Numbered from the stretch's first letter, positions 19,579 to 59,697 are shown. The stretch: DNA of 64,000 bases from an uncultured Actinomycetes bacterium (GCA_963841735.1 CAWJDT010000001.1:1504001-1568000); one strand, 5' to 3'. Translations and numbers: made by a program. Notes: generated by a model not told the origin, from the letters alone.

Positions 19579-19637
19579 CAAGGTCTGGCGCTGTTGGGAC
19601 GGGGCGGAGCGGGAGCCAGGGGGTGAGTCTGAGACCG
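19579..19637 (+). repeat. Boundary repeat R, copy 1
   Basis: CAAGGTCTGGCGCTGTTGGGACGGGG...GTGAGTCTGAG, 2 nt after the lipoprotein stop. Confidence 0.8.
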
Positions 19638-19652
19638 GACTGCGTGGGACGC

Positions 19653-20570
19653 CTAGGTCCAGGGCCCTCCAGGACTCCAAGTTCCTGTGGACCCGTTCTG
19701 GGCGGCCGCGCCTTCGAGAGCCGGCCACAAGAACGTCCTGATCGCGAGCACGACCTCCCCGAGTTCACGACCGGGGAGTCCGGATCGTTTGAGGAATCCC
19801 TCCCACTGCGCTCGCTTTGTTGCATCCTCGGCAAAGGCGTCGGTCAACCCTGTGGGGACATCCCTGGGGAGAACCGTATCTCTCCGGGCGAACGTGGCTC
19901 TAAGGGCTTCGACAAGAAGCGCACCCCGGAACGTGAACGAGCGTGCCATATCGGCGAGATCGTAGTAGTCCTTCATCCGACTGTTGACCATCCCCAGCTT
20001 CACTATGGTCTGGATCTTCTCCGCGGCGGCCGTTTCTTTGGGATAGCCGAGCAGGCGGGCGGGCCTGAGTCCAAGACCGGGGAGGAGCGCCGGGTAATCG
20101 ATCAGGTTGGCCGCCGGCGTGACGGCGTCGCCCACACCGATGTCTATCTGCACTTGCAGCCGGGCTTTGGTCAGGCTTCCAGAGAGCCTTACCCTGACGC
20201 CCCCATACTCAGTGTCCTCTCGGATCTCTTCGGCCGACACCGACGCGGGTTCAAAGACGATGCCGTCCTCTTCATCATCCAGCGCACAGACTGCTCGGAA
20301 GATGTCCGAGGCCGCCCCGACATTCATCGGCCCAAAGCCCAACAGATCGATGTCCTTGGTCGGCCGGTGGGGTTCCTCGGTCCATACGTAGAACAGCGAA
20401 GCTCCCTTGAGAACGAAACGGTGTCCGTGTTCGGTCCGAGACAGTCGGGATAGTAGGCGCTCTCGGGCATAGCGCTGGAAAACCGCCTCAGGGGTTTCGC
20501 CTCGCGTCCTCGCGATCTTAGTGAGCATCTGCCTGATCGATGCCGCCCGCTCTGAGGTCGCTTCTCCCAC
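19653..20570 (-). CDS. AbiEii-family nucleotidyltransferase toxin (type IV TA)
   Basis: FVLKGA..RPTKDIDL, AEKIQT..NSRMKDYYDL; GTG 20570 with AGGAG RBS. Confidence 0.9.
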   Translation of the reverse strand: MGEATSERAASIRQMLTKIARTRGETPEAVFQRYARERLLSRLSRTEHGHRFVLKGASLFYVWTEEPHRPTKDIDLLGFGPMNVGAASDIFRAVCALDDEEDGIVFEPASVSAEEIREDTEYGGVRVRLSGSLTKARLQVQIDIGVGDAVTPAANLIDYPALLPGLGLRPARLLGYPKETAAAEKIQTIVKLGMVNSRMKDYYDLADMARSFTFRGALLVEALRATFARRDTVLPRDVPTGLTDAFAEDATKRAQWEGFLKRSGLPGRELGEVVLAIRTFLWPALEGAAAQNGSTGTWSPGGPWT

Positions 20571-20577
20571 GATGCTC

Positions 20578-21180
20578 CTACAGCAGCGATTCGAGATAGG
20601 GACGCATGACGTTCTGAACGCGGCAGACACAGGCGAAGCGCCAGAGATCGTCCATAGAGCACTTCTTCTGCCGCCAGCAGTCACGCAGGGCCTCAAGGGC
20701 GACATCGAGGCCGAGCTTGTTGCGATACTTGAAGCAGTCGGCAACAGTCTTGGCTGGTGAGTAGATGCGTACGGTCACTCCGTCGATGACGTGCTCCTCG
20801 ACGCCCTCCGCGTACGCTATCCCCGAGAAACGGACCACCTTGAGCGGTATGCGCCCTTCGCTAGCGGGCCAATCGGTGGGTTGGAGGGCGATCCATACGA
20901 GGTGGGGGACCTGGGTGGTTAGCTCGTGGTACTGCAGCGCCGAGAGCAGGCAGATCACACCTCGAGGCACCAGAGCGGCCGCCTCGGCGAGACTGGCGTG
21001 CTCCGACCGCGAAAGGTCGCTTCGGACGTAGAGGCCCCGAGCCGGTTGCTCCAGCAGGCCAGCGTCGCGTAGACGCGGAAGCTCACGTCGCGATAGGCCG
21101 ATAGCCTCCACGTCACGCGGCCTTAGGACGCCTCTTCGGGCGGCCAGTTCGAGGATACTGTCGACGACCTGTTGCTTCAC
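20578..21180 (-). CDS. AbiEi-family antitoxin / transcriptional regulator
   Basis: RGLY, ICLLSALQYHELTTQ, YSPAKTVADCFKYRNK; GTG 21180 with GAGGAG RBS. Confidence 0.9.
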   Translation of the reverse strand: MKQQVVDSILELAARRGVLRPRDVEAIGLSRRELPRLRDAGLLEQPARGLYVRSDLSRSEHASLAEAAALVPRGVICLLSALQYHELTTQVPHLVWIALQPTDWPASEGRIPLKVVRFSGIAYAEGVEEHVIDGVTVRIYSPAKTVADCFKYRNKLGLDVALEALRDCWRQKKCSMDDLWRFACVCRVQNVMRPYLESLL

Positions 21181-21220
21181 GTCGCTCCTCAGCGAAAGGT
21201 GACTCGTACCAGTTCGTTGC

Positions 21221-21249
21221 ATTCTGCCCATTTCCTATGTACTTGTCAA
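21221..21249 (-). promoter_or_regulatory. Sigma70-type promoter of the abiE operon
   Basis: TTGACA-17 nt-CAGAAT on the minus strand. Confidence 0.7.
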
Positions 21250-21324
21250 TATCTATCAATGAATGGGGCAAGTACGCTCTCACCGTGGTGAGTCGGGGCT
21301 TACGTTCACGCCACTGACTTGTCA

Positions 21325-21486
21325 AAGACCCCGCAGTTCGCTTCGACCGCACGACGAAGCCTACGCCGCCAGGCTCGGTAGTGATGTGCGACTTTGGGTG
21401 GAGGTTGGCGCGCTGGGGTCAGTCCGAGCAACCGAGCGCAAGCTGGTCCGGAGTCCAGAGGGTCAAGCGGAGGGTTGGGGCCTCAA
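21325..21486. repeat. Foldback element family F2, copy 1
   Basis: Ends GACCCC..TTCGCTTCGACC / GGTCAAGCGGA..GGGGCC are imperfectly complementary; similar to 24615-24760. Confidence 0.45.
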
Positions 21487-21645
21487 AATCTTCCCTTGAA
21501 AGCAAAAGGCCCCGGCGCATTCGCCGAGACCCATCGCCGACCGAGAATCCCCAGTCCGTAGCCGGAGCATAGGTCGTGCCGTTGCGAGAGTCAACGCCTG
21601 GTTCGTGAGACTTTGGGTGCGTGTCGGCGCGCGCCCCGGTGCGCC

Positions 21646-22561
21646 TCACTCCAGCCCGAGCCCCGCCCGGATCCACCCGCCAGCCTCCCGCCCCCGCTCG
21701 TCCAGAGGCACCAGCTCCACCTCCGCTGCCGACGCTCGCTCCCACCCCCAGCTCCGCCGCCCGGCGAATCTGGTCCTGCTCGAAGACCGGCTTCTTCATC
21801 AGGCTCGACGCCCCGAACTCCCGCAGGAGCGCCACTCCCGCGGCATCCAGGGCCACCCGGTCGGCGCTCGCGAGCATGAGGCCCGGCTCGACCTCCGTCC
21901 CCTTGTCCGGTCCCCCGTCGACGAACGCCTTGGCCGCGTCCACGATCACGAAGTCCACGGGGTAGGAGGCGTTGATCTCGGCGATCATGAGCCGCTGGAA
22001 CGGAGAGCCATGGAGCTCATACATGTAATCGTAGAGACCGCCGGGCATCTTCTTGGCCACCAAGCCCACCGAGTTCTTGAGCGACATGGTGAAATGCCCC
22101 CCGAACCTGTGCGTCTTGAGGCAGCAGGTCTGGATGACGACGTCCGCCTCGAGCACCACCTTCGCCAGGTAGAAGCCCCTCAGCCAATGGGTGCCGCTCC
22201 GCTCGATGTGGACCCACCGCTCCTCGGGCTCCTCGTTCAGCACGACCACCTTGAAGCCCAGCTCCCCGGCGAGGGCGAAGATGCCCAGCTTCTCCAGGAC
22301 TTCGCGCGTATCGCCCATGCCGCTTCTCTCGGCCAGAGTGATCTCGCGCGCCCCGGCCTCCTTGAGGAGCTGGACGATGGCCCGGAGAGTGTCCGGGTGA
22401 GTGGAGGCCGGAAAGGCATCGGCGCTGTTGAAGTTGGCCTTGAGGGCCACGGTCTTGCCGGAGAGGTCGCCCAAGCCGCCATGCTCGAACAGGCTCCTGA
22501 CGGCCGCGTCTCTGTCCGAGGAGTCGATCAGAAAGACTGGGGAAGTGCCTTCGGGACTCAT
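21646..22561 (-). CDS. DUF362 family protein, with one extra base near 21735 shifting the last ~29 codons
   Basis: LKANFNS..STHP, CLKTHRFGGHFTMSLKNSVG, DRVALDAAG; the natural end SAAEVELVPLD..GLE* lies in another frame. Confidence 0.85.
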
Positions 22562-22702
22562 GGGATCTACGCTCCCTTCTTGCCACCGTGCGACGCCGAC
22601 AGCCAGAGGCCGTTCTGTGAATGGTGGTACCCGGGGCGGTGGCCGGGTAGTCACCGGGGGGGGCACGGGCAGCGGGTCACCGCAGGAGGGACGGGCCTAG
22701 GG

Positions 22703-22762
22703 CAAATCCTGGTGCTGTTGGGACGGGGCGGTGACCGGGCGCCGGGGGTGAGTCTAGGCGCG
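22703..22762 (+). repeat. Boundary repeat R, copy 2
   Basis: CAAATCCTGGTGCTGTTGGGACGGGG...GTGAGTCTAGG. Confidence 0.8.
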
Positions 22763-22873
22763 GGGTGGGCGGGATACATATGAACGGCACCGTCTCGTCG
22801 TCATCATGTGGCATGTTCTTTGTCGAGAGTGTGGTGTGCACAGCAGGTGCGGCCGCGCCGGCCGACAAAACGC

Positions 22874-22908
22874 TTGCTATGACTGTCTGAAACGGTCATA
22901 ATGACCGT
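22874..22908 (+). promoter_or_regulatory. Promoter with palindromic operator over the -10 box
   Basis: TTGCTA-17-CATAAT; perfect inverted repeat ACGGTCAT-A-ATGACCGT at 22892-22908. Confidence 0.7.
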
Positions 22909-22932
22909 GTCACGTGGTCATCGGAGGGAGTT

Positions 22933-23544
22933 ATGTTCGACACGGGCGATACCATAAGGGAGGCTTTCTCCCTCCTCGGCGCCGCACTTGAGTCGCGCGA
23001 GTCCGGGCCCTACGAGATCGTGGTGGTCGGAGGCGCGGCATTGAGTGTCATCGGGGTTGGGGTCCGGGCCACGAAGGACATTGATGTCTTGGCACTGCGC
23101 AGTCATTCCCCAGGTTCACCAGCAACCGGACTCTTCAAGCACAAGCCGCTGCCCAGTGCGTTGCTGGAGGCAGCGGAGGCTGTCGAGCATGCGTTGGGCT
23201 TGGACCATGATTGGCTGAATGCAGGCCCGGCCGACTTGCTTGACCAGGGGATGCCCGAAGGCTTCGAGAGCCGGCTGACCTCGCAGCGCTACGGCTCGCA
23301 TCTCACCGTGTGGTTCCCGTCACGGGAGGATCTCATCTGTCTCAAGACCTACGCGGCGGCTGATACTGGCATCGGTCGTCACACTGAGGATCTGCGGGCT
23401 CTGGGGGCATCGTGCGATGAACTTCTGGTTGGGGCGCTCTGGGCTCGTTCCCAAGACCCCTCCGAGGCCTTTCGAGAGATGTTGACCGGTCTTCTGCGCC
23501 ACTTCAACTGTGACGAGGCCGCCAAGGAGATCGCAGGTGAATAG
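22933..23544 (+). CDS. Nucleotidyltransferase, DUF6036/AbiEii-like
   Basis: VVVGGAAL..RATKDIDVL, DWLNAG, DLICLK..RHTEDL. Confidence 0.8.
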   Translation: MFDTGDTIREAFSLLGAALESRESGPYEIVVVGGAALSVIGVGVRATKDIDVLALRSHSPGSPATGLFKHKPLPSALLEAAEAVEHALGLDHDWLNAGPADLLDQGMPEGFESRLTSQRYGSHLTVWFPSREDLICLKTYAAADTGIGRHTEDLRALGASCDELLVGALWARSQDPSEAFREMLTGLLRHFNCDEAAKEIAGE

Positions 23545-24553
23545 CATCACTTTGATTCAAGAGAATCTGCGTGACAGGGTACTTGATCTTGCGTGGCGGC
23601 AGTGGAGTTCCATAGGGCTCGCTGGGACGAGAGAGGTGTCTCGGACCCTCGTCGACCCCGAAGCACTGCTGGTTGCGTCAATGACTCTGGGGCGTCGCGA
23701 CGCGCGCCTGTTCGATGAGATCCTAGATTGGCTCGTCAAGAATGCATCGCTTCTGGACCTTGCGCGGCTGCGCAGAATCGCCCGCCGGGCTACCTGTGAG
23801 GAGCGAAGACTGCTGACTGCCGCGACGCACTATGCGGCAGAAAGCGGAGGCGCGGCCAACCTTGCCCGGCTTCTTGATGGCCTAGACGCTCAGGCCGGTG
23901 AGCGCGAGATAGGCGAAGAACCTTTGTTTCTGTCCGAGGGAGAACCTGGGAGAAGCTGGACTGAGCCTGATGCGGCATTTGCCGCCATGGGCTTCTTGCG
24001 TTCCCGGGTAGAGCTGCGGGGGATGTCCACGAAACCTCATTTCTCCAATCCTGCCTGCCTGCGTTTCAAGGCGCGTGCTCTCGCGGGTCAGGGGTCCCGG
24101 GCCGAAGTGCTCACCTACCTGCTCACCCACGACTGGACTCACGGCAGACTCATCGCCGAGAGGATCGCCTACGGACAGGCGCCGGTCGCGGCCTATCTCT
24201 CCTCCCTTCAAGAGGCAGGCTTGGCCGATCGCCGAGAAGAAGGTAAGAAGGCGCTGTACCGGCTGGCCGGGGGATTGCGGGCCGGCTTCCCCGACCTGCC
24301 GTTATTTGTAGACTGGGTCCAGCTTTGGTCCACGCTTGTGACCATACTGACGGATCTGGAGCATGCTGAGGCGCCCGAGCAAGTGGTATGGATGCGACTC
24401 GCCGAATCGCTAGAGAAGCACCGCTCCGGACTTCGAGCCGAAGGGTTTGAAGTAGAGGTCGGCGAGCTACGTGGTTGGGCTCGGCAGGGTCCGGAAGTCC
24501 TTGCGTCGGCTGTGGAAAGACTGACGGCCAAGGTGGCGGATCTTGCCGAGTAG
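23537..24553 (+). CDS. Winged-HTH-containing protein, probable partner (antitoxin) of the nucleotidyltransferase
   Basis: GTG overlaps the upstream gene end; AWRQWSSIG..DPEALL..RLFDEILDWL N-domain, ArsR-like wHTH near RAEVLTYLL..YRL. Confidence 0.7.
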   Translation: MNSITLIQENLRDRVLDLAWRQWSSIGLAGTREVSRTLVDPEALLVASMTLGRRDARLFDEILDWLVKNASLLDLARLRRIARRATCEERRLLTAATHYAAESGGAANLARLLDGLDAQAGEREIGEEPLFLSEGEPGRSWTEPDAAFAAMGFLRSRVELRGMSTKPHFSNPACLRFKARALAGQGSRAEVLTYLLTHDWTHGRLIAERIAYGQAPVAAYLSSLQEAGLADRREEGKKALYRLAGGLRAGFPDLPLFVDWVQLWSTLVTILTDLEHAEAPEQVVWMRLAESLEKHRSGLRAEGFEVEVGELRGWARQGPEVLASAVERLTAKVADLAE

Positions 24554-24614
24554 CAGCGTCGGGGTGCCGCCCTTCGCTTGATGCCGGCTTGGCGCCGGGT
24601 ACACCGCTTCGGTT

Positions 24615-24760
24615 TTCAAGGGGCCCGCGGATCGCGTCGACCGCACACGGAGTCTACGCCGAGCCGTCGCATGCGGCCCTAGGTCCTTGGTTTGACCTTG
24701 GCGCACTGCACGAGGCCTGTTCGCGATCCAGAAGGTCGATTGGAGGGTCGGAGCCTCAAG
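24615..24760. repeat. Foldback element family F2, copy 2 (diverged)
   Basis: Shares GACCGCAC, CTACGCCG, TTGGCGC, TCCAGA.GGTC, GGAGGGT.GG.GCCTCAA with 21325-21486. Confidence 0.45.
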
Positions 24761-24788
24761 GCCGCCAGACGGCGCGACCGCCCGAGAG

Positions 24789-25160
24789 GGTGCCGCTCCG
24801 CTCGATGTGGACCCACCGCTCCGCGGGCTCCTCGTTCAGCACGACCACCTTGAAGCCCAGCTCCCCGGCGAGGGCGAAGATGCCCAGCTTCTCCAGGACT
24901 TCGCGCGTATCGCCCATGCCGCTTCTTTCGGCCAGAGTGATCTCACGCGCCCCGGCCTCCTTGAGCAGCGTCACGATGGCCTGGAGACTGTCCGGGTGAG
25001 TGGAGGCCGGAAAGGCATCGGCGCTGTTGAAGTTGGCCTTGAGGGCCACGGTCTTCCCGGAGAGGCCGCCCAAGCCGGCCTTCTCGAACAGGCTCCTGAC
25101 GGCCGCGTCCCTGTCCGAGGAGTCGATCAGAAAGACCTGGGAAGTGCCTTCGGGACTCAT
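24789..25160 (-). pseudogene. Truncated duplicate of the DUF362 gene (5' ~40%)
   Basis: Near-identical to 22190-22561; breaks off after ERSGT; upstream region is duplicated too. Confidence 0.9.
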
Positions 25161-25300
25161 GGGACCTCGCTCCCTTCATGCGACCGTGCGGCACCGGCGG
25201 CCAGAGGCCGTTCTGTGGATGGTGGTACCCGGTGCGGTGGCAGGGTAGTCACGGGGGCGAGGCGGCCGGCGGCCCGTCGCAGGGCGTACGGAGCCAAGGG

Positions 25301-25360
25301 CAAATCCTGGTGCTGTTGGGACGGGGCCGTGAGCGCGCGCCGGGGGTGAGTCTTGGCGCC
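25301..25360 (+). repeat. Boundary repeat R, copy 3
   Basis: CAAATCCTGGTGCTGTTGGGACGGGG...GTGAGTCTTGG. Confidence 0.8.
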
Positions 25361-25434
25361 AGCCTCTCGGGAAACCACGAGGGAGCGCCTTCTCCCCTTC
25401 TCTAGGGCGCCGGTGGCGATTCGCCAGGCTGAGT

Positions 25435-25851
25435 TCAGTGAATCTCGTGAAGCGTTTCGCAGATCCGGTCTAGCGATGCGGATATCCTTGTTGGGGTGCA
25501 CTCGCAGGCCCAGAGCATGACCACGGTCCATCCGGCTGCTCTCAACCTGGCATCGTTGTCCCGGTCCCTCGCAATGTTCGCCGCGATCTTGGGCGCCCAG
25601 TAGTCCTCCCGAGATTTTGGAATGTGGCCGTCGTAGCACGTGTGCCCATGCCAGAAGCAGCCGCGGACCTGAACGGCCGTCTTGTACTTCGGGAAGACCA
25701 GATCAGGCTTTCCAGGAAGATCTGCGACGTGCAATCTGTATCTAAGACCCCTGGCAAAAAGACCTCGTCGGACAGCCATCTCCGGTACCGTGTCTTTGGA
25801 GCGTATCGCTCTCATTACCTCAGATCGCTTCTTCTGCGAGAAGACGTCCAT
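25435..25851 (-). CDS. vsr: Very-short-patch repair endonuclease
   Basis: MDVFS..RSEVMRAIRSKDTVPE, LPGKPDLVF, GCFWHGH, WAPKIAANIARD, WACE. Confidence 0.92.
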   Translation of the reverse strand: MDVFSQKKRSEVMRAIRSKDTVPEMAVRRGLFARGLRYRLHVADLPGKPDLVFPKYKTAVQVRGCFWHGHTCYDGHIPKSREDYWAPKIAANIARDRDNDARLRAAGWTVVMLWACECTPTRISASLDRICETLHEIH

Positions 25852-25855
25852 GTGG

Positions 25856-27010
25856 CTAGAGCCCGAGGGCCCGCCGGATCGCGCAGGCGAGATGCCAGGC
25901 CAAACGGGGAGGGACGGCATCACTCACAAGACGGATTTGGGCACTCATGTTGCCTGTCAAGCGGTAGTGTTCCGGGAAGGACTGCAGACGCATGGCCTCA
26001 TAGATGCTGAGGCGTCGCTGGCCGCTGGGATGTACGTGCACTTCTCTGTGGCCGTATGCAACCGTCCAGCTTGGCCTATCCCAGGCGAGTGTTCGGAAGC
26101 TTCTACCCCACGCTTGACCTTCGACCAACGAATCTTTCGACGCGAATTTGGAGGACCTTGGCACCAGGCACCAGTGGTTTGGGTGAATCGGAAACGTTTC
26201 CGGGTCAAGGCCTGGGGCATTGAGGCGAGGCTCCGGCAGACCGCCGATTGCGTCGCGAACCGTACGGGTGGTGTGCTCTGGCTCAGGCCACTGGAAGTCC
26301 GCGGTGGGGTGCAACTCCTTATTGACCCCCACTATCAGGATTCTCGGTCTCTCCTGGGCGACCCCGTAGTCCGCGGCGTTCAGAAGCCTGTCTTTGACTT
26401 CGAAACCGGCGTCGGCGAACAATTCCTTGAAGCGCTCATATCGCGCGGCATGCTTCCTGCCTAAGAGCCCCGCGACGTTCTCAAAGACGAAGAACGAGAT
26501 CGGACGTCTTCGATTCAGCGCGGTCAGGAGTGCCGCGTAAGCTTCGGGCAGACTGTGTCGGGGATCGTCGTCGCGCTGATGAACATTTGAGACGCTGAAG
26601 CCTTGGCACGGAGGCCCGCCCAGGACGCCAACTGGCTCCATGCGGCGCCCTAGCAGCTCGTCCAGATCTTGCACAGCTAGGTCACTGATGTCTCGCCTCC
26701 ACGCCTTCGCTCCGGGATGGTTGAGAAGAAAAGTGTTGATCGCCTCTTGCTCAACGTCTAAGGCAAGTGCCGTGGAGAATCCTGCCTGTCGGAATCCCTC
26801 ATCCAGTCCGCCCGCGCCGCAAAACAGGCTGAGCACCTTCAGAGATCCGTCTGCATTCGCTACCCGTGGGAATGAATAATCTTGCGCGGCTCGAAGGAGC
26901 TCCATTCTTGCCCAAGCAGCAGTGGTGAGTCCGCGTGTTGCGGCGACTCCATCGAGAAGCTGCTTCTCCTCCTCGTCTGCGCGAATCATAATCTTGTGAT
27001 CTCTGGCCAC
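25856..27010 (-). CDS. DNA (cytosine-5) methyltransferase with N-terminal ribbon-helix-helix-like extension
   Basis: LFCGAGG, GGPPCQGFS, FENVAGL, QERPR, RLQSFP motifs; first ~45 aa look RHH-like. Confidence 0.93.
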   Translation of the reverse strand: MARDHKIMIRADEEEKQLLDGVAATRGLTTAAWARMELLRAAQDYSFPRVANADGSLKVLSLFCGAGGLDEGFRQAGFSTALALDVEQEAINTFLLNHPGAKAWRRDISDLAVQDLDELLGRRMEPVGVLGGPPCQGFSVSNVHQRDDDPRHSLPEAYAALLTALNRRRPISFFVFENVAGLLGRKHAARYERFKELFADAGFEVKDRLLNAADYGVAQERPRILIVGVNKELHPTADFQWPEPEHTTRTVRDAIGGLPEPRLNAPGLDPETFPIHPNHWCLVPRSSKFASKDSLVEGQAWGRSFRTLAWDRPSWTVAYGHREVHVHPSGQRRLSIYEAMRLQSFPEHYRLTGNMSAQIRLVSDAVPPRLAWHLACAIRRALGL

Positions 27011-27148
27011 CTTGGCTCGCTTTCAGGCTGGCGTATAGCATTGCTACCCGGCTCGCCATCACCATACAAGCCAGCTCAACACTGGTCAAGCGGTCTCCGC
27101 CGTAGTTTGATAGGGTGTTAGACACTCGGGTTGAGGGAAAGGCTAGCC

Positions 27149-27946
27149 ATGCAGGGGAAACACCCAGGCAGCGCCGCAGAGAGTATTCTTGCTGTCCTGC
27201 GAGACTACCCTGAGGGGCTGGACATACACCAGATCATGGACTTGTGCCCTGAAGAGGGGAACCAGGCTCATTTCACCCGGCGGCTCCGAGAGCTCTATCC
27301 CTTCCACAGAATAGCCCGGTCCCATGAAGGTCGTCGGTTTGTGTACCGGTACCTGGGGCCAAAAGCGGAGAATGAATGGGACCGGGGAGAGATCTCGGCC
27401 CGAGTCCGGGCGCAGGTTCTTCACCAGGCGGGCGGCAAGTGCCGGATGTGTGGCCGGAGTATTGCTGATGACGGCGTCAAGCTAGTTGTCGACCACAAGA
27501 TTCCGAGATCCTGGGGCGGGCTGGGCGTGGCCGATAATCTTTGGGGTATTTGTGAGGAGTGCAACGCCGGTAAGAAGAACTACTTTGCCAGCTATGACTC
27601 CCTCACAATGAAGACGGTGCTGGCCATACCGTCGGTTCACGAGCGGATTCTTCTGCTGTTGGCTCTCCAGCAAGGGGCTTGGGTAAGCAGCGATCTCATC
27701 GAGTTTGTTGCGAATTTCGACGACTGGCAACAAGACTGGCAGAAACGTCTGAGGGAACTACGCTATTTCGGGCTTGATATCGCTTCGAAGAGGCATAAGG
27801 TCGGAAAGCGTTTCGTGTCGATGTATAGGCTAGATGAGCTGGTTGACAAGCTCCCGCCAGATCTGTCTCATGCCGCTCGCGAGTATGAGCGTACTCGAGC
27901 GGCTATCAACGCACTGGGGGGAGCGGAGGATGGCGGGGCCGGATAG
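27149..27946 (+). CDS. HNH endonuclease flanked by two wHTH-like domains (putative restriction nuclease)
   Basis: CRMCG..LVVDHKIP..NLWGICEECNAGK; RRLRELY and KRLRELR repeats; divergent from the methyltransferase. Confidence 0.85.
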   Translation: MQGKHPGSAAESILAVLRDYPEGLDIHQIMDLCPEEGNQAHFTRRLRELYPFHRIARSHEGRRFVYRYLGPKAENEWDRGEISARVRAQVLHQAGGKCRMCGRSIADDGVKLVVDHKIPRSWGGLGVADNLWGICEECNAGKKNYFASYDSLTMKTVLAIPSVHERILLLLALQQGAWVSSDLIEFVANFDDWQQDWQKRLRELRYFGLDIASKRHKVGKRFVSMYRLDELVDKLPPDLSHAAREYERTRAAINALGGAEDGGAG

Positions 27947-29901: not shown

Positions 29902-29918
29902 GATAGGGGGTACGGGTA

Positions 29919-33619: not shown

Positions 33620-33694
33620 CTAGGCGGCTCGTCAGGAGCGACGGGGCCGACGAGACAAAGTCCGGTTGAACTTTCCCGAGTTCAGCGGCTAACC

Positions 33695-33957: not shown

Positions 33958-34020
33958 GGTCCATCTCCCAAGGTGGGACCCCGTGCCTCATGACCACGCC
34001 CGCCTGGTGCGCGTCGCCAC

Positions 34021-35468: not shown

Positions 35469-35520
35469 GGTGTGGGTCTCGTCGAACTTGCTCATCGGTA
35501 CTGAGGCTGATCACTAGGCC

Positions 35521-45632: not shown

Positions 45633-45635
45633 CCG

Positions 45636-52303: not shown

Positions 52304-52612
52304 CTACCAGCGGTTACCGCCGCCGCCGCCACCGTAGCCGCCCGAACGGGGCTCACGAGGAGCTTGTTCCTTGGCTGAGTCTACCTTGAGGGCGCGGCCG
52401 TCCATCTGGGTGCCGTCAAGAGCGGCTTTGGCCTTCTGAGCTTCCTCGGGTGATCCCATCTCTACGAAACCGAAGCCTTTGGGGCGGCCGGTGTCGCGGT
52501 CGGTGATCAGGGCGACCGAAGTCACTTCGCCGTGAGCCTCGAAAGCGGTCCTGATGCTCGCCTCGGATGTTTCGTAGCTGAAGTTGCCCACGTACAGTTT
52601 TGCTGAATTCAC
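52304..52612 (-). CDS. RRM RNA-binding protein with Gly-rich tail
   Basis: KLYVGN (RNP2), KGFGFVEM (RNP1); GTG with GGAGGA RBS. Confidence 0.93.
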   Translation of the reverse strand: MNSAKLYVGNFSYETSEASIRTAFEAHGEVTSVALITDRDTGRPKGFGFVEMGSPEEAQKAKAALDGTQMDGRALKVDSAKEQAPREPRSGGYGGGGGGNRW

Positions 52613-52752
52613 TAGATCCTCCATGAACGGAGTTATATTGCGACACGCGAGAGGGAAAGACTGGAGACTGGGCGAGGAGGTTTAGAAGCTCGGCGCTTGG
52701 CCTAGAGAAGATTCCTAACGGATGCTTGTTCGCAGTGTAGCACGACTTGGCA

Positions 52753-53094
52753 TCAAGCGGTGAAAGTCAAGGCCGCGCGACAGAAGAGCAGCCTGCGCGA
52801 ACTGGCGACAGCTCGGCTCAACGCCCGCACCAGCAGACGCAACTCCGCCGCAATTGTGACATCTTCGAGCAGGGCCAGCAAGACCCAGACCCACGGCTCC
52901 ACTGTGATCCACGTATGGGAGCCTCGCCCCCAGATCGTCTCGCGATGGTCGGTGAAACCCACGCACGACGCGTAGAGCGACAAGAGGACGGCGCTGAGCA
53001 AGGGGTTGGTTATTAGGTTGACCGCCAGAAGCGCACGCCGCTGCCGGCTGAATGACCCATGCGACGACGGTGGTTGCCGCCGGCAACCCGCCAT
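52753..53094 (-). pseudogene. Possible remnant of a small membrane protein
   Basis: Hydrophobic stretch LLAVNLITNPLL..LLEDVTIAAE; poor start context. Confidence 0.35.
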
Positions 53095-53258
53095 CGATCA
53101 GTAGGCGCGCACGGTCAGTTCCTCCGCCACGCGACCGAGGTTCCGGGCCGCCGTAGTCCCCCGCGTGGTCCCCGCGCAAGACACGCAAGGGAGGTCTGAG
53201 TGTTAGTGTTGATCCATCGCGTCAGTGCCTGTATCCATCGTGTCCGAGGAGGGCCGGA

Positions 53259-54008
53259 ATGAGAAAGCACGCTATGTTCGCCGGTGCCGTGTTCGCGACC
53301 GCGGTCCTGACCCTCCTGTTGCTGTCTACCGCCCTGCTCGGCTGCCAATCATTGGAGACTGCTGCGACGGCATCGGCCGTCGAGACGACCGCGGGCACCG
53401 CGGCAACGCTCACGACCCTCGCGCCCGCCACTACCGAGGCGCCCACCACCAGCCAGTCGCCCACGACGACCGCGGGTACCCCGACCTCCATTGCTCCAGA
53501 GATGATCGCCGGCGTCCCGTCGGTTCTCTACGAGGACGACCTGCTCTCGCTCTATCGGCCGGACACCAGCGCCATCACCAATGGAGGTTTCGAGCAATTC
53601 CTCCCGCTGACCCAGTCGCCCCAAGTGGCGATCGTCCTACCCGAGGAGCTCTTCGACGGTACGAATCTGATCGAGGCGGGTGTCTACATGGGCGTGAAGG
53701 CGGTGGCCGATCTCCCCGGCTTCTGGGAGGATCCGTACGGTCCCCTCGAGGAAGCCGCGGGCAATACCGACTTCGCCGGTCTGACCTGGACCACCTTCAC
53801 GGCGTCGGAGGGGGCCGCGGGCAACACCTACGATCAACGGATATACCGGACGGTCTCGGGCGACCGCTGCTTCGAGGTCGTGGAGTTTCTGCACTCGGGC
53901 CAAATAGGGGCCTACGAGCCGGGAACCGTCGAGGAGTTCGACAGGGCGAAGTTCGAGGGCTACCTGGAAGCTATCGTGCGGTCACTCACACTGCAGGGCG
54001 TGATGTAG
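53259..54008 (+). CDS. Lipoprotein with Thr-rich linker
   Basis: GGAGG RBS, lipobox LLGC, EGAAGNTY..YRT..CFE domain. Confidence 0.8.
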   Translation: MRKHAMFAGAVFATAVLTLLLLSTALLGCQSLETAATASAVETTAGTAATLTTLAPATTEAPTTSQSPTTTAGTPTSIAPEMIAGVPSVLYEDDLLSLYRPDTSAITNGGFEQFLPLTQSPQVAIVLPEELFDGTNLIEAGVYMGVKAVADLPGFWEDPYGPLEEAAGNTDFAGLTWTTFTASEGAAGNTYDQRIYRTVSGDRCFEVVEFLHSGQIGAYEPGTVEEFDRAKFEGYLEAIVRSLTLQGVM

Positions 54009-54048
54009 CGCCCGGGAGTAGCCCTGGTCACCACCGGGGAGATCTTGC

Positions 54049-54105
54049 CAAAGCCTTGTACCGTTTGGACCGGGGCTGACCCACCCCTGAAGCGAGTCTG
54101 ACCCC
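54049..54105 (+). repeat. Boundary repeat R, copy 5
   Basis: CAAAGCCTTGTACCGTTTGGACCGGGG...GCGAGTCTGAC. Confidence 0.7.
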
Positions 54106-54246
54106 ACCCACCGCGGGCCACTAGCAGTTCTCCGTATGCCACCACCACCTTCTCTTGATCGTCCAAGCTCCAACCTTCGTCCGATGCGGCCCTCTGGCAA
54201 CCTCCTACCATGGACGGAGGCAAGAGAGTGCCCCATGGGATAGAAA

Positions 54247-54552
54247 ATGGAGATATTTCATACTATAATTGGATTGAACGGGGACGCGGTCCGCTTCGAG
54301 TTCGATCAGCGCAAGAGCTCGGCGAACAAGCTCAAGCACGGCATCGACTTCGTAGAGGTCCAGAGACTGTGGCATGACATGGCGCTTGTGGAGGTCCCCG
54401 CTCGTTGCGAGGATGAGATGCGGCGGTTAGTGGTCGGCGTGATCGATGGGAAGCATTGGTCGGCGGTCATCACTTACCGCGAGAAGAGGATCCGACTGAT
54501 CTCCGCGCGTCGCTCACGTGAAGAGGAGGTGGCGATCTATGAAGGCCGATGA
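54247..54552 (+). CDS. brnT: BrnT family toxin
   Basis: FEFD.RK..NKLKHGIDF, RIRLISARRS; true start probably nearer 54274. Confidence 0.9.
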   Translation: MEIFHTIIGLNGDAVRFEFDQRKSSANKLKHGIDFVEVQRLWHDMALVEVPARCEDEMRRLVVGVIDGKHWSAVITYREKRIRLISARRSREEEVAIYEGR

Positions 54553-54766
54553 GTTTGACAAGCGCTTCGATGCCGGGCAGGACGTCACCGATGCACTCGA
54601 CGTGGCGGCTGCCCGACGACCCTTGCAGAACATGCGGCGCGTGAACGTGGACTTTCCTCGGTGGATGGTGGAGTCACTCGACAGAGAAGCGGAACGCCTG
54701 GGAGTCACCAGGCAGTCGCTCATCAAGATCTGGATCGCCGAGCGGCTGGAACGGCTGGCCTCCTAG
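54539..54766 (+). CDS. BrnA/CopG-type antitoxin
   Basis: MKADEFDKRFDAG..RVNVDFP..LDREA.RLGVTRQSLIK; GAGGAGG RBS. Confidence 0.88.
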   Translation: MKADEFDKRFDAGQDVTDALDVAAARRPLQNMRRVNVDFPRWMVESLDREAERLGVTRQSLIKIWIAERLERLAS

Positions 54767-55099
54767 GCCGCAGCGGCCGGAGGTTTCGGCAGCGGCCCTC
54801 CACGCCTCATATCAATGTGACGCGCCTCGCGCTTGGTGACCACAGCAGTGAGCGTGCGGCAGGCACTGGAGCGAACGGTCGGTCGAGGGCGGAAAGAGCT
54901 TGTTGGGGCCGACGCGCCAGTCTGAGGGCGCGTCCTCACCCTAGCCTCTCAACCTGGGCGCCATGATCGACGCCGTGGTCACGACCTACAACCAGGCAGA
55001 GCAACCGTTCGCCAATCTCCATCCTCGGGCTGAACTCGCTCCGGCCAACGCCATTCTAGTCTGGGCCTTTGAGGTGCGCGGGCAAAGGCCCGGTGCCTA

Positions 55100-55115
55100 T
55101 TATCACATGTGATAA
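55100..55115. promoter_or_regulatory. Perfect 16-bp palindrome, probable operator
   Basis: TTATCACATGTGATAA just upstream of a toxin-HTH pair. Confidence 0.7.
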
Positions 55116-55139
55116 ACTCCGTCTAGAACGAGCGATAGC

Positions 55140-55345
55140 CTGGGCGAGAAGAGGGTCAGAGGATTCGTGTTTCGGTCCTACGTCGGAGATCATCCGCCCC
55201 TTCACGTGCACATCTTCCGCGAGGGGCGGCAGATCGGACGTTGGGACATTGAGCACCAGTGTCCCCTGGACTCTTTCCCCTTACCAGCAGGCTCGTTCGG
55301 GCCTTGCGAGAGGCCGGATATCTAGACAGCGAGGAGGAGCGATGA
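55140..55345 (+). CDS. DUF4160-like toxin missing from the ORF track (CTG start, one base missing in a C-run near 55280)
   Basis: Reads GEKRVRGFVFRSYVGDHPPLHVHIFREGRQIGRWD; adding one C gives LTSRLVRALREAGYL..* with ATGA overlap to the next gene. Confidence 0.7.
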
Positions 55346-55893
55346 CTGGCACATTCGAGAGCCCCGACACGATTGAGAGTCCCGACACGTTTGAGACCCG
55401 CCTCTCGGACGTTGCCTACGTCGACTCCATGGCTACTCTGGTCGTCAAGTTCCTGGCGGGCCGGACATACGCGGTGCCGTTGGCCGAGCTGGAAGGCAGC
55501 GACGGATCCTCGGTGAGGAGCGTGGCCCTGGGCTCCTATGGGTACGCGGCCGTCGTCGAACAACAGTCGGGCAACCGGCTGGAAGTGCCGTGGGACGTCA
55601 TCCTGTACCACGCCGAGCCGTCGTATCACTTCCACAAGCACGGCAGCGCCGTAGCCGCCGCCGCCGCGGATCGTCAGGAGATCGGAGAACGGGTCCGTCT
55701 CGAACGCCTCGAGCGGTCGTGGACGCTCGCCGACCTGAGCGCGCGCACGGGCATCAAGATCCCCAATCTGTCCCGCCTGGAGAAGGGCAAGCACCTGCCA
55801 TCGCTAGAGACGCTGGAGAAGGTGGGCGGCGCCTTCGGTCTGCCGGTGGCCGCGCTGGTGGCCACGAGGCGCGCGGTCGGCGTCGCCCCGTGA
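55342..55893 (+). CDS. Putative antitoxin: DUF2442-like N-domain plus XRE HTH
   Basis: GAGGAG RBS; TLADLSARTGIKIPNLSRLEKGKHLPSLETL. Confidence 0.8.
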   Translation: MTGTFESPDTIESPDTFETRLSDVAYVDSMATLVVKFLAGRTYAVPLAELEGSDGSSVRSVALGSYGYAAVVEQQSGNRLEVPWDVILYHAEPSYHFHKHGSAVAAAAADRQEIGERVRLERLERSWTLADLSARTGIKIPNLSRLEKGKHLPSLETLEKVGGAFGLPVAALVATRRAVGVAP

Positions 55894-55939
55894 TCATGGC
55901 TCTGACTAAAAGGTCATATGACTTATAGTTGGGGAGCCG

Positions 55940-56319
55940 ATGGCTCTCTTCCGACTCGACTGCGATGAAGCACAAGGAGTGACAGTCTCATGAGCGCGCA
56001 GGTCAGTACCGAGGTGAGCGGCGCCGCATCTGCCGGTGCGGACGGCGAGTCGGTAGTGGTCAGCGATGGCTCCGGCAGGCAGGTGGGAGCGAGGCTCCGT
56101 GCGGTCAGGGTGAGCACGAACCTGAGCCAACTGGAGTTGTCGCGGCGCAGCGGCATCGCGCAGGAGTCGCTCAGTAGGATAGAGACGGGTTGGCGTGATC
56201 CGCGCCTGGGCACCCTCCGGAGGCTGGCTCAAGGCATGGGCCTGTCGCTGGACCAACTGCTGGAGCGCTTGCGGGTTGACAGCGGGCCTGCCCTGAAGGG
56301 TGGCTCCATATCGGTCTGA
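55940..56319 (+). pseudogene. Internally deleted copy of the 36639-37458 operon; HTH-only ORF 55990-56319 remains
   Basis: ATGGCTCTCTTCCG start, AAGGAGTGAC junction, near-identical HTH coding region; GTCATATGAC palindrome at 55913-55922. Confidence 0.85.
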
Positions 56320-56343
56320 AACTCCGGCCTGGCGGAGCGACCC

Positions 56344-56377
56344 TTGAATTGCGCAGGCAGTTGAGTAAAATAACTCA
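56344..56377 (+). promoter_or_regulatory. Promoter/operator of the AAA gene
   Basis: TTGAAT-16-TAAAAT with TGAGT-N6-ACTCA inverted repeat. Confidence 0.55.
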
Positions 56378-56408
56378 TGGCATTGAGTAGCGAGTCAAGA
56401 GGCGGCTG

Positions 56409-57599
56409 ATGTACCAACGCACCCTCACTCACACCCTCGCGCAGCGACTGGCGGGCGAGCGGCGCTTCATCCAAGCCCTCGTAGGCCCGCGGCAGGTAGG
56501 CAAGACCACCAGTGTGATGCAGGCACTCGAAGGTCTGGGTATCCGCCACGTCTACGCGAGCGCCGACGAACCCGGCCTGCGCGGCCCTGCGTGGCTGGAG
56601 CAGCAGTGGGAGCAGGCGAGGCTCCTTGCTCGTTCAGAGACCACCTGCCTCCTGGCGTTGGACGAGATCCAGAAGATCCCCGGCTGGTCGGAGACCGTGA
56701 AGCGGCTCTGGGACGAAGACACGCGCGCAAGGCTCGATCTTCGTGTGTGCCTGCTGGGGTCATCGTCACTGCTCATCACCAGTGGTCTCAGCGAGAGCTT
56801 GGCAGGGCGCTTCGAGTTGCTGAGGGCGACTCACTGGCTGTACCGGGAGTGTCGCGAGGCGTTCGGCTGGGACCTCGACACCTATCTGTTCCATGGGGGC
56901 TACCCAGGAGCGGCGGGCCTCATAGACGATCATCAGCGTTGGCGCGCCTACGTGCTCGATTCTCTGGTGGAGACCACCGTTTCGCGCGACATCCTTCTTA
57001 TGACCCGGGTAGACAAGCCCGCGTTGCTTCGACAGCTCTTCTACTTGGCGGTGGAGCACTCGGGCCAGGTACTCTCGTTCACCAAGATGTTGGGTCAACT
57101 TCACGACGCGGGAAACACAACCACCATCGCGCACTACTTGGAGTTGTTGGAGCAGGCCGGCTTGATCCGCGGCCTGGGCAAGTTCTCCGGCAGCAGGGTC
57201 AGGCGGCGGGCATCTATCCCCAAGCTCCTCGTGTTGAACACGGCGCTGATGACCGCGGTCGACGGCCGGACGCTGAGTGAAGCTCGCGCTGACGGCCGGT
57301 ACTGGGGCAGGCTCGTCGAATCGGCGGTGGGGGCTCACCTTAGCGCGGTGTACGGGACGGCCGGTGCGGGTCTCTACTATTGGCGCGAGGGCAATCAGGA
57401 GGTCGACTATGTGCTGCAGAGCCGCCCGTCCGTCGCAGGGACCCCGGCTCTGTGGGCCATCGAGGTCAAGAGCGGCAGTCGACGCTCGGACGGCTCTGGG
57501 ATGGAACGGTTCTCTCAGGTCTTTGGACCGGCTAGAAAGTTGCTGGTGGGACAAGGTGGGCTTCCGTTGGAGGAGTTCTTCTTGGGCGAGTTTAGCTGA
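56409..57599 (+). CDS. AAA ATPase with wHTH and C-terminal PD-(D/E)xK domain (AAA_14/DUF4143 type)
   Basis: GPRQVGKTT, LDEIQK, ESLAGR, GGYP, YWR..EVDY..IEVKSG. Confidence 0.92.
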   Translation: MYQRTLTHTLAQRLAGERRFIQALVGPRQVGKTTSVMQALEGLGIRHVYASADEPGLRGPAWLEQQWEQARLLARSETTCLLALDEIQKIPGWSETVKRLWDEDTRARLDLRVCLLGSSSLLITSGLSESLAGRFELLRATHWLYRECREAFGWDLDTYLFHGGYPGAAGLIDDHQRWRAYVLDSLVETTVSRDILLMTRVDKPALLRQLFYLAVEHSGQVLSFTKMLGQLHDAGNTTTIAHYLELLEQAGLIRGLGKFSGSRVRRRASIPKLLVLNTALMTAVDGRTLSEARADGRYWGRLVESAVGAHLSAVYGTAGAGLYYWREGNQEVDYVLQSRPSVAGTPALWAIEVKSGSRRSDGSGMERFSQVFGPARKLLVGQGGLPLEEFFLGEFS

Positions 57600-57656
57600 A
57601 GTCTGGCCCCGTCTGGACCGGGGTTCGGGGCGGGCCGGCCTCCGCCAATCTCAGCC
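57598..57656 (+). repeat. Boundary repeat R, copy 6
   Basis: GAAGTCTGGCCCCGTCTGGACCGGGG...GCCAATCTCAGCC, overlapping the AAA stop. Confidence 0.6.
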
Positions 57657-57732
57657 TTAGGTCTGATGCCCCTCTCACGGTCGCGTGGGAGACTGACCTT
57701 GTGTTCCGAATCAACCCCCGAGATACCACTCG

Positions 57733-57761
57733 TTGACATGACAGCAGCGCTCAGGCATAAT
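57733..57761 (+). promoter_or_regulatory. Near-consensus sigma70 promoter
   Basis: TTGACA-17 nt-CATAAT. Confidence 0.8.
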
Positions 57762-57765
57762 CCAG

Positions 57766-57820
57766 GTACTTCCTCCCCGTCGAACACGCCGCAAGGCCTT
57801 CGGCGGGGTACTGTTTTTTT
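57766..57820 (+). ncRNA. Putative ~55-nt leader/small RNA ending in an intrinsic terminator
   Basis: Stem CCCCGTCGAA/TTCGGCGGGG enclosing GCC-GCAA-GGC, then T7; directly after the promoter. Confidence 0.5.
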
Positions 57821-58305
57821 GGGCCCAAACGCGCTTCTACACCGGGGTCCCGGCCGAGAAGGCTGATCCCCACTGGTACGGCTTCTGGACGAGCAAGCTG
57901 GCCATGATGGGGCGGCGTGGCGTCCACGTCTGCTCGCGCGAACTCCAGTATCACGACGAGATGGTCGCGCTGCCCGACGGCACGTCTGTCACGGTGCGAC
58001 TGGGCCGGGAGAAGGGTATCGACGTGCGCATAGCTCTCGATATGGTGCGGCTCGCGCTCTCCAACGCGTACGATGTCGCCCTCGTCCTCAGCCAGGACCA
58101 GGATCTTGCGGAAGCCGCCCTGGAGGTCCGTGACATCTCGATGACCACCGGCCGGTGGATCAAGGTCGCCTGCGCGTACCCGTGGAGCCCGGCCTCGCGC
58201 AAGCGAGGGATCAACAACACCGAGTGGATCCGAATCGATTCCGACATGTACGCGGCATCGGCAGACCCGCGGGACTACCGCGTGTCGCGGTGGCCCGCGG
58301 AGTAG
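57820..58305 (+). pseudogene. NYN-domain (PIN-like) RNase lacking its N-terminus
   Basis: RFYTGVP, EKGIDVRIALD, SQDQDL present; first catalytic DGxN motif and a start codon are absent. Confidence 0.75.
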
Positions 58306-58344
58306 CCTGACCTCGGCCCGCGGACTCGTCGCCCGCAAAGCTAT

Positions 58345-58462
58345 CAGAGTCTGGTGCCGTTTGGACCGGGGGCGACCAACGCCCGGAAGCGAGTCTGAGC
58401 CCACTCTCAGCGGGCCCCGCGGCGTTTCTTCTTGTGCCGCTCCGTTCCCGGTGCTATAAGGG
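58345..58462 (+). repeat. Boundary repeat R, copy 7, with promoter-bearing extension
   Basis: CAGAGTCTGGTGCCGTTTGGACCGGGG...GCGAGTCTGAGCCC, then TTGTGC..TGCTATAAG. Confidence 0.8.
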
Positions 58463-58507
58463 ACGAAGTGCCATGGCGCTATCCAGCGGGAAATCTCACG
58501 GGGGCAC

Positions 58508-59071
58508 ATGAAGAAGCAAGCTCAGGTGCTGTTTCTTTGCGCGATTGTGTTTGTCGTCCTGCTCGCCGGCCTCCTCTTGGCCGGATGCGACAAGGGCCGC
58601 AGTTCTTCTCCGCCTGCTCCGGCGCCTGTCTCCGCGACGACAACGGCCGTGACCTGCCCTGAGGCCATCTACAGGGCTGCGAAGTGGGGAGAGCCGGTGA
58701 CCATCGAGGGGTTGGAGCGGATGACTGTAGAGGCCCCTCAGATCGATGCCGCTGCCACACCTGCGGAAGTGCCTGGGTTTCCCGGACGCGTAGTTGTGTG
58801 TTGTTCGATCACCATCGAGAATCTCGGGAGCCGGCCTCTCCACTACGATGAGTCATGTTTCCAGCTGAGTTCGCGAAACGAGACCTGGATAGGTGGGGGG
58901 GAGGGAATCAAACCATCCTCGGTTCCGGCGCTCGGCTCAGGAGAACTGCCACCAGGGGATGTCGTTCGGGGTGCGATCGCGTTCCAGTTCACCGAGGAGG
59001 CGGCGACCGTCGCCGGGCATCTCAGGTTCTACGACCTGCCATCTCTCACCGTGAGCATCGATTGGAACTAG
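58508..59071 (+). CDS. Lipoprotein with DUF4352-like Ig fold
   Basis: Lipobox LAGC; ITIENLG..F.L..LGSGELPPGDVVRGAIAF. Confidence 0.78.
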   Translation: MKKQAQVLFLCAIVFVVLLAGLLLAGCDKGRSSSPPAPAPVSATTTAVTCPEAIYRAAKWGEPVTIEGLERMTVEAPQIDAAATPAEVPGFPGRVVVCCSITIENLGSRPLHYDESCFQLSSRNETWIGGGEGIKPSSVPALGSGELPPGDVVRGAIAFQFTEEAATVAGHLRFYDLPSLTVSIDWN

Positions 59072-59252
59072 TCGGGCACTTCTGCGGTCACCCCACCCTC
59101 TTCGGCATAGCTATCGTGACCCTCCCAAGGGCAACGAGGTTCTCCATGCCCTCGGTCTTCATGCGCAGACAGCAGGGCCTGATTTCAATAGACGCAGGGC
59201 ATGCGTACTCCTGGGAGCGGTACTCCTCGTCGGCGCGCTCGCGACGCTTGCA

Positions 59253-59543
59253 GTGACAGCGGCTGTATCCCGGTCCTTCTGGTCGATATGGGGCCCGATG
59301 CTTGCAGGGATCGCGCTTGCTGCAGGGGGTGGGTTCTTCTTGTTGGTGGGGAGCGGTCGCCAGGTATCCAGTGCAGCTTATTCGAGCGGCGGCTTGGGAG
59401 CCCTACTCATCGGGTTGGTCCTGACGTTTCTGGGGAGCGTTGAGAGTGGTCCGCCTATGCTGGTTCCTGGAATTGTGCTTTGTCTGGTTGGCATTTCACT
59501 AGCCGCGAGATCCCGGAAACGCGACGACTTTACTCAAGAGTAG
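59253..59543 (+). CDS. Small three-TM membrane protein
   Basis: Three hydrophobic segments and a basic tail; weak RBS. Confidence 0.5.
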   Translation: MTAAVSRSFWSIWGPMLAGIALAAGGGFFLLVGSGRQVSSAAYSSGGLGALLIGLVLTFLGSVESGPPMLVPGIVLCLVGISLAARSRKRDDFTQE

Positions 59544-59579
59544 CGGGACTACCCTTCGGCAGCGCCCGTGCTTCCGGGT

Positions 59580-59697
59580 CAAGATCTGGCGCCGTTTCGA
59601 CTGGGGCTTAGCCACGCACGCGAGTGAGTCTTGGCCCATTCTCAGCGGCCCCCCGGCCTTTCTTCTTGTGCCGCACCGCTCCCGATGCTATAAGGAA
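59580..59697 (+). repeat. Boundary repeat R, copy 8, with promoter-bearing extension
   Basis: CAAGATCTGGCGCCGTTTCGACTGGGG...GTGAGTCTTGGCCC, then the same extension as copy 7. Confidence 0.8.

Follow-up and report, generated by a model that had tools for sequence, protein, structure and literature searches.

A 64,000-nucleotide stretch of DNA from an uncultured Actinomycetes bacterium (GCA_963841735.1, CAWJDT010000001.1:1504001-1568000; hereafter, the window) carries eight copies of a short two-box repeat, designated R, dispersed among toxin-antitoxin and anti-phage genes. The genome to which it belongs, G000, comprises 2.82 Mb in 8 contigs at 63% G+C, and the window corresponds to C1:1504001-1568000. 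Pfam searches identified AbiEii/AbiEi, Vsr with Dcm and HNH, BrnT, a DUF4143 ATPase, DUF4352 and an OLD-TOPRIM protein among the window cargo. These assignments agree with most of the cargo labels in an earlier note on this DNA, apart from NYN, for which no domain was found among the 115 window frames scanned. R is a discrete site conserved box by box; its copies cluster, lie at breaks in synteny and flank cargo that is found at different places in different genomes. Coordinates are collected in Table 1, in which L-numbers denote loci; the closest relative is G004, and other family genomes carry labels in the style G001-G051.

Architecture of the repeat

Using a sequence-only covariance model built from 20 own-genome copies of R, we recovered all eight copies listed in the earlier note, at 34.1-59.5 bits; the next-best match in the window reaches 8.4 bits. 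A further, weaker copy that had been proposed near position 11621 did not hold up, scoring 8.0 bits (E 0.16), equal to background hits inside coding regions. A pattern for the left box, allowing three or fewer mismatches, gave 10 window matches, comprising the eight copies and two three-mismatch hits, where 1.55 were expected and 100 shuffles yielded a maximum of 6.

R consists of a well-conserved left box of 22 nt (CAAGATCTGGTGCTGTTTGGAC), a G-rich middle of approximately 24 nt that is variable in sequence and shifts in length by a few bases, and a right box (GTGAGTCT). Information content is correspondingly high at model positions 3-25 and 51-58 and low in between. The related words AGATCT and AGTCT are spaced 44-46 nt, placing the boxes about four helical turns apart. 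Often, 5-22 further similar bases follow the right box on its 3' side, and the conserved unit is therefore nearer 80 than 58 nt. The bipartite, non-palindromic layout described earlier is borne out, and its length of about 58 bp is revised. R is directional, and its copies are old, with nearest-neighbor identities mostly of 0.62-0.88; for 26 of 58 copies the nearest neighbor sits in another genome.

Seven of the eight window copies lie on the + strand. Copy 1 exactly fills the gap from the stop codon of a + strand gene (18740-19576) to that of AbiEii (- strand, 19653-20744) and forms the left edge of a variable region, with similarity to G004 breaking at 19582/19585. Inverted copy 4, at the right edge of that region, shares 94% identity with its positional counterpart in G004; similarity to that genome resumes at 33992. 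Copy 3 is a duplicate of copy 2 (93% identical, with similarity stopping after model position 63); because both lie inside one 570-bp duplication they represent a single event, and the window holds seven independent copies. Copy 6 starts within the stop codon that closes the DUF4143 ATPase gene (56409-57599), and similarity to G010 ends at 57599. Copies 7 and 8 have approximately 70 nt in common past the right box (window 58419-58470 and 59656-59700), including a sigma-70-like promoter, TTGTGC-17 nt-TATAAG, that points at the next gene. The description of all copies as intergenic is accurate for the window; beyond it, two own-genome copies fall within dnaE reading frames.

We compared R with known classes of short repeats and signals. 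In folding tests of the aligned strand, RNAalifold returned 0 consensus pairs for 20 aligned copies, and 10 copies folded no better than shuffles (z -1.7 to +1.6). A scan of the window with Rfam at gathering score gave 0 matches, as did one of positions 53800-59900 at E<=1; on these results, a structured RNA or attC-like hairpin was rejected. A miniature inverted-repeat transposable element (MITE) or repetitive extragenic palindrome (REP) was rejected, as R has no terminal inverted repeats or stem and its copies are clustered in two islands, and a clustered regularly interspaced short palindromic repeat (CRISPR) array was rejected on copies only 62-97% alike and spaced 0.65-8.7 kb. By inspection, R is also not a promoter: its TTGGAC word and right box lie 23-26 nt apart, and the -10-like AGACT on the reverse strand lacks a -35 element. 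Comparison by eye with consensus sequences likewise led us to set aside sigma-54, extracytoplasmic function (ECF) sigma factor and dif-like readings. The left box resembles a clamp-binding motif in one frame; array copies keep to no common frame, however, and dnaE reads another, which speaks against a coding remnant. The skew minimum lies at approximately 0.66 Mb, and the two + oriented islands therefore fall on opposite replichores, leading us to reject a replication-oriented site resembling Ter or the FtsK orienting polar sequences (KOPS). A G-quadruplex hot spot was discarded on the variation of G-runs among copies.

Distribution of R and exchange of cargo between genomes

Scanning the genome and its relatives with the R profile revealed 22 own-genome copies, which form two toxin-antitoxin/defense islands and 2 solo copies. 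Within the genus, R is present in 10 of the 15 other genomes; family-wide, the figures are 20 of 61 genomes and 6 of 19 genera, and none of the 16 genomes searched outside the family contains it. The five congeners without R are fragmented assemblies of 150-370 contigs. Wherever R is present, it is clustered. In exact-pattern scans, the close relatives detected were metagenome-assembled genomes labeled "uncultured Actinomycetes bacterium." Apart from short chance-like matches, these scans placed R in three "uncultured Actinomycetes" assemblies and in seven metagenome contigs only. The seven contigs hold the same kind of cargo, and phage and plasmid records yielded no match to R. A look for public sequencing runs that contain window positions 52501-61500 likewise gave none.

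According to Pfam, both islands are rich in toxin-antitoxin and defense genes and contain many gene fragments. Their cargo includes AbiE, PIN/MazE, BrnT, TacAT, Gp49/HTH, HicB, Vsr-Dcm-HNH, TIR, Mrr, DUF4411, a deaminase-helicase, DUF4143 ATPases and OLD. A particularly compact arrangement occurs in G012, where six R copies are spaced 0.76-1.2 kb and the intervening blocks, where annotatable, mostly consist of one toxin-antitoxin pair or a single gene. The orientation of genes flanking R follows no rule. In G050 (L037:11721-14958), a Schlafen-type helicase gene lies between two inverted-orientation R copies a few kb downstream of dnaE, and a Schlafen-type helicase is likewise R-flanked in G051 (L038:14304-16572), where the left copy is weak (E 0.002).

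Comparison with G004 shows how R relates to changes in gene content. Core genes of the two genomes are 82-85% identical, and G004 is colinear with window positions 9641-19582 and 33992-45028. Between these shared flanks lies 14.4 kb in G000 and a different 25 kb in G004. This variable stretch opens at the first bases of copy 1, the exact point at which synteny with G004 is lost, and closes 14 nt past inverted copy 4; the earlier note had also placed copy 1 at the start of the accessory region. The stretch carries AbiE, DUF362, a DUF6036 nucleotidyltransferase, Vsr-Dcm-HNH, a kinase/ORC-like gene and an aminotransferase fragment. The AbiE pair is common to both genomes, but its left neighbors differ, and the switch coincides with the AbiEii stop codon, where R has its right edge. 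Two pieces of the neighborhood of inverted copy 4 recur nearby: the 5' part of an aldo-keto reductase gene (34246-34536 versus 35518-35808, 99% identical) and a 3' piece of an aminotransferase gene (33737-33957 versus 43918-44139, an 89-90% copy).

Similar junctions are found at other R loci. At the solo 303-kb locus, G000 and G004 match through the right box and then split into 125 nt versus 2.8 kb, and where island 1 ends, the left edge of R is the point from which similarity sets in. A block composed of R, a DUF4143 ATPase gene and a second R is part of island 1 in G000 and lies between glyQS and ppdK in G009; the glyQS-ppdK spot in G000 contains other DNA, without R. To place these cases in context, we collected the ends of between-genome similarity across all fetched loci and counted those within 25 nt of R. 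Of 362 ends, 30 meet this threshold, compared with 7.0 by chance and a maximum of 15 in 1000 random placements. This is an enrichment of about fourfold.

DUF4143/AAA_14 ATPase modules (window 56341-57599; L003:3181-4536; L019:7344-8699; G010:C3:897139-898399) are themselves sharply bounded, each beginning approximately 70-90 nt ahead of the start codon and ending on the stop codon, and are 88-89% identical in differing contexts. Three of the four adjoin R, and upstream of those in L003 and L019 are four direct repeats of approximately 18 nt.

R within dnaE and duplicated gene ends

R also occurs in frame inside dnaE in at least two genera: in two of the G000 copies and in copies from G001, G012 and G014 (all genus g1) and from G050 and G051 (genus g22). 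By comparison with solved DnaE structures, it lies in a lineage-specific insertion of approximately 140 residues that leads from the polymerase core to the HHH domain. This linker is hypervariable: G005, G013 and G010 have unrelated, partly palindromic inserts at the same spot, and the G005 linker retains a decayed left box. The peptide encoded by R is poorly conserved and the DNA boxes are conserved, which suggests, from sequence comparison, a constraint on DNA rather than on protein.

The real dnaE of G000, with its own R copy, is located 14 kb beyond the window (locus L004). Downstream of intact dnaE in both G000 and G014, orphan dnaE 3' ends of 1.6-2.1 kb are arranged head to tail. Cargo of 2.4-3.2 kb lies between the stacked ends, and the cargo ends there share a conserved region of approximately 100 nt. 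This arrangement suggests a family of elements that may land in dnaE and bring a replacement 3' end. The boundaries of the dnaE duplications are 0.8-1.3 kb upstream of R, and we therefore regard them as products of a separate process that merely carries R. A shufflon of the DnaE C terminus was considered and rejected, as the orphan fragments point the same way as dnaE and have boundaries that lie away from R. The main G000 dnaE (L004:10351-14902, - strand) is represented by three overlapping frames (10351-12570, 11603-13249 and 13439-14902), reflecting either frameshifts or long-read assembly errors.

A second duplicated gene end involves DUF362. The module made up of the DUF362 5' fragment, its upstream region and R is present in at least four copies in G004, with the same inner boundary as in G000, and the position of R 35 nt upstream of DUF362 is kept in G000, G004 and G014. 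Like the dnaE duplications, these modules carry R as a passenger.

These duplications raise the possibility that R is an inert scar or passenger, originating in the dnaE linker or upstream of DUF362 and multiplied as cargo landing there duplicates gene ends. Its in-frame presence in dnaE of two genera, the R-carrying 3' fragments stacked downstream of dnaE, the recurrence of the DUF362 module with a fixed inner boundary and the fact that R islands adjoin dnaE in four species of the genus are all in keeping with such an origin. Random deletion should nevertheless leave ragged edges, and what is observed is conserved boxes around a middle that varies in sequence and length. Old, diverged copies keep the two boxes at fixed spacing, which decaying relics would not, and this argues for a function at the DNA level. 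Non-dnaE copies that were aligned with their flanks lose likeness to dnaE at the R edges, the remaining copies not having been searched directly. Island 1 is more than 1 Mb from dnaE, R-flanked cargo sits beside glyQS in G009, and, as noted, the dnaE duplications start well upstream of R. We consider this explanation unlikely.

The same loci contain a second repeat of approximately 165 nt, which has perfect terminal inverted repeats of 12-14 nt and is a true miniature insertion element. It is inserted with the frame intact in the G000 aminotransferase gene and in orphan dnaE fragments, and is absent from the main dnaE and from the G004 aminotransferase gene; G004 has an extra copy of its own.

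Table 1. Coordinates of R copies, islands and associated features (window positions unless a contig or locus is given)
Feature	Coordinates	Strand	Remarks
Variable cargo stretch	19583-33991		Bounded by copy 1 and inverted copy 4
R copy 1	19577-19654	+	59.5 bits
R copy 2	22701-22777	+	35 nt upstream of DUF362 (-) start; within duplicated block 22189-22761
R copy 3	25299-25359	+	Beside DUF362 5' fragment 24759-25160 (-); within block 24788-25359
R copy 4	34006-34082	-	Inverted; right edge of variable region
R copy 5	54047-54121	+	Between gene 53259-54008 and BrnT/BrnA-like pair
R copy 6	57598-57674	+	Most degenerate, 34 bits
R copy 7	58344-58418	+	Copy plus both flanks match G014 at 80%
R copy 8	59577-59655	+	Upstream of OLD-TOPRIM fragment gene
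Island 1	C1 387-436 kb (49 kb)	+	10 R copies, all co-oriented
Island 2	C1 1524-1579 kb (56 kb)		10 R copies: eight window copies and two (-) at 1574 and 1579 kb
Solo R copies	C1 303 kb; contig C5
DUF362 5' fragment and R module	22189-22761		Repeated at 24788-25359
dnaE linker	L009:7924-8394; L004:11101-11571		L009, G012 dnaE; L004, G000 dnaE locus
Orphan dnaE 3' fragment (HHH_6, OB fold)	61491-62493	-	One of several stacked downstream of real dnaE
Orphan dnaE 3' ends	L004:5326-7132 and 1298-1866; L017:8280-10357 and 12975-14952		L004 ends, C1:1569-1575 kb; L017, G014
Miniature element	61844-62007; 44353-44522; 60523-60600		Second copy inverted; third partial
Miniature element, further copies	C1:435325-435466; L004:5431-5600

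Interpretation and relation to known systems

The conservation of both boxes in old copies, together with the lack of an orientation rule for flanking genes, is best explained by a protein-bound junction or recombination site. We tentatively read R as a conserved site of this kind that serves cargo exchange, loosely in the manner of integrons or tycheposons, and place the probability of this reading somewhat short of an even chance. R would be a functional DNA site of approximately 60-80 bp in which two protein-binding boxes are held at a fixed distance, and it would mark the joints where toxin-antitoxin and anti-phage blocks are gained, lost or swapped in a few hypervariable islands of the family. 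A factor encoded elsewhere in the genome may recognize both boxes. Cargo would be joined at the edges of R, most often directly after the right box, and successive events would leave co-oriented R copies between cargo blocks. Protein binding, and recombination as the cause of the link between R and cargo joints, are what we infer from these patterns.

A reading of R as a recombination site had already been put forward in the earlier note, and our results sustain it in part: R is a discrete, directional site at cargo joints, and ends of similarity are enriched there. Several observations weigh on the other side. Some junctions follow model position 58, 63, 67 or 80 and others coincide with the left edge, so that no single crossover point fits the full set and breaks occur at either edge of R. 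In the DUF362 modules the left flank accompanies R; where island 1 ends, the right flank does. Copies 2 and 3, the DUF362-side copies of G004 and the copies in dnaE fragments are passengers in larger duplications bounded away from R, and an old copy resides in frame in dnaE. Among the 30 similarity ends near R, 16 are at dnaE linker copies, and these ends are not independent. The ATPase blocks keep 88% identity between genomes in the gene itself but not in the flanking R copies and spacers. Moreover, R occupies short non-coding gaps, and some of the breaks at R may therefore reflect DNA that is unalignable at 75-90% identity. Finally, three defining properties of integrons or tycheposons, namely a hairpin, an adjacent integrase and a single crossover point, are missing from R.

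The absence of a visible enzyme from the window, remarked on previously, extends to the other R loci: no recombinase or transposase is placed beside R among 552 reading frames compared with Pfam from 11 genomes and 7 metagenome contigs. Mobile-element proteins in those loci are limited to an IS110 transposase and an IstB, each separated from the closest R by 5-14 kb. The own genome encodes eight matches to the tyrosine-recombinase family PF00589 and four to the integrase core (rve), none in the islands. It also encodes one large serine recombinase (C5:265839-267678, corresponding to L006:5839-7678). The gene stops 12 nt short of a partial, inverted R, and another weak R-like copy with the same orientation is found 57 kb from this site (C5:210792-210840). 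This recombinase may use R as a landing site. It was found in only 2 of the 15 other members of the genus, one being R-negative, and no empty site for the enzyme was recovered. As it does not co-occur with R, we rejected it as the builder of the arrays.

A regulatory or architectural role could account for some of the same features. Under this alternative, R acts as a roadblock, an insulator or an operator for a global or nucleoid protein and is selected between independently acquired cassettes, making its link to joints secondary. The spacing of the boxes by about four helical turns, with AGATCT and AGTCT 44-46 nt apart, would suit such a site, as would the way R fills intergenic gaps, sometimes exactly from stop codon to stop codon, and its constant position upstream of DUF362 in three genomes. 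Against this, R has no promoter- or terminator-like geometry, given the distance from TTGGAC to the right box and the lack of a hairpin, and flanking genes face either way, which argues against a role at the transcript level. A copy within the dnaE coding region is hard to explain by regulation, and an insulator role alone leaves the travel of R with cargo to new loci unexplained. We judge this unlikely.

R is very unlikely to be a small non-autonomous mobile element that inserts alone, entered the dnaE linker once and later provided portable homology: both of its edges are sharp, the same genomes hold an inverted-repeat miniature element that inserts in frame into genes, and the dnaE linker took up unrelated inserts in other species, but R has no terminal inverted repeats or hairpin, the genome comparisons made revealed no site filled or cleanly empty by R alone, its copies are clustered and co-oriented rather than scattered, and at 62-88% identity they are too diverged to be good substrates for homologous recombination.

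Returning to R as a recombination site, we can speculate further that it belongs to an undescribed cassette-exchange system of uncultured soil Actinomycetes, in which an unrecognized recombinase or targeting factor, not encoded nearby, acts on the two-box site to dock and shuffle defense and toxin-antitoxin cargo, the ancient dnaE copy included. Such a system would parallel integrons in function while differing in site architecture and enzyme. We regard this extension as unlikely. If R is a recombination site, it would show how a lineage that has neither integrons nor visible integrases builds its islands of defense and toxin-antitoxin genes, would define a new type of site that is bipartite and hairpin-free, and would provide, through its profile, a handle on accessory islands in metagenome-assembled actinomycete genomes. 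The dnaE copy and the stacked dnaE 3' ends also pose the question of how an essential gene tolerates the role of a hot spot. Were R only a scar or an insulator, it would be a useful island marker and little beyond.

To our knowledge, integrons are not known from Actinobacteria, and a literature search for integron-like gene cassettes in Actinobacteria turned up no such system. The attC sites of integrons are defined by a hairpin, which their imperfect inverted repeats (R''-L'' ... L'-R') form as single-stranded DNA. R arrays resemble clusters of attC sites lacking integron-integrases (CALINs), sharing with them co-oriented repeats with conserved ends and a variable middle, small and often single toxin-antitoxin blocks and the absence of a recombinase from the array. 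The co-oriented arrangement with small cassettes typical of integrons is found at R, in seven of the eight window copies and all of island 1. In contrast to attC, R forms no hairpin, its cargo genes face both ways, its blocks span 0.65-8.7 kb and no attI/IntI platform is seen.

In Mycobacterium tuberculosis, the repeat REP13E12 is the attB site for the phiRv1 serine integrase; it is approximately 1.3 kb long and is not known to bound cargo arrays. R is similar in being a dispersed host repeat that may act as a landing site, with the G000 serine recombinase gene ending 12 nt from an R-like copy. It differs in that this recombinase does not co-occur with R and has no recovered empty site. Staphylococcal cassette chromosome (SCC) elements form composite islands, and R has in common with SCC-like and tycheposon-like islands that blocks are flanked by direct copies of an attachment core matching a host gene.

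The tycheposons of Prochlorococcus occupy hypervariable islands in which successive cargo blocks lie between direct partial copies of the attachment site, with degenerate remnants that lack an integrase; in intact tycheposons, a tyrosine or serine recombinase adjoins the repeat, and the repeat matches a host tRNA (bioRxiv 10.1101/2020.12.28.424599). Compared with tycheposons, R lacks an adjoining recombinase in the 552 frames, is a protein-gene linker or intergenic unit rather than a tRNA end, is often inverted in arrays relative to its dnaE copy and shows breaks at both of its edges. What the two have in common is the build-up of hypervariable islands from successive blocks, with integrase-less remnants, and a repeat that matches part of a host gene, a tRNA gene in tycheposons and the dnaE linker in the case of R.

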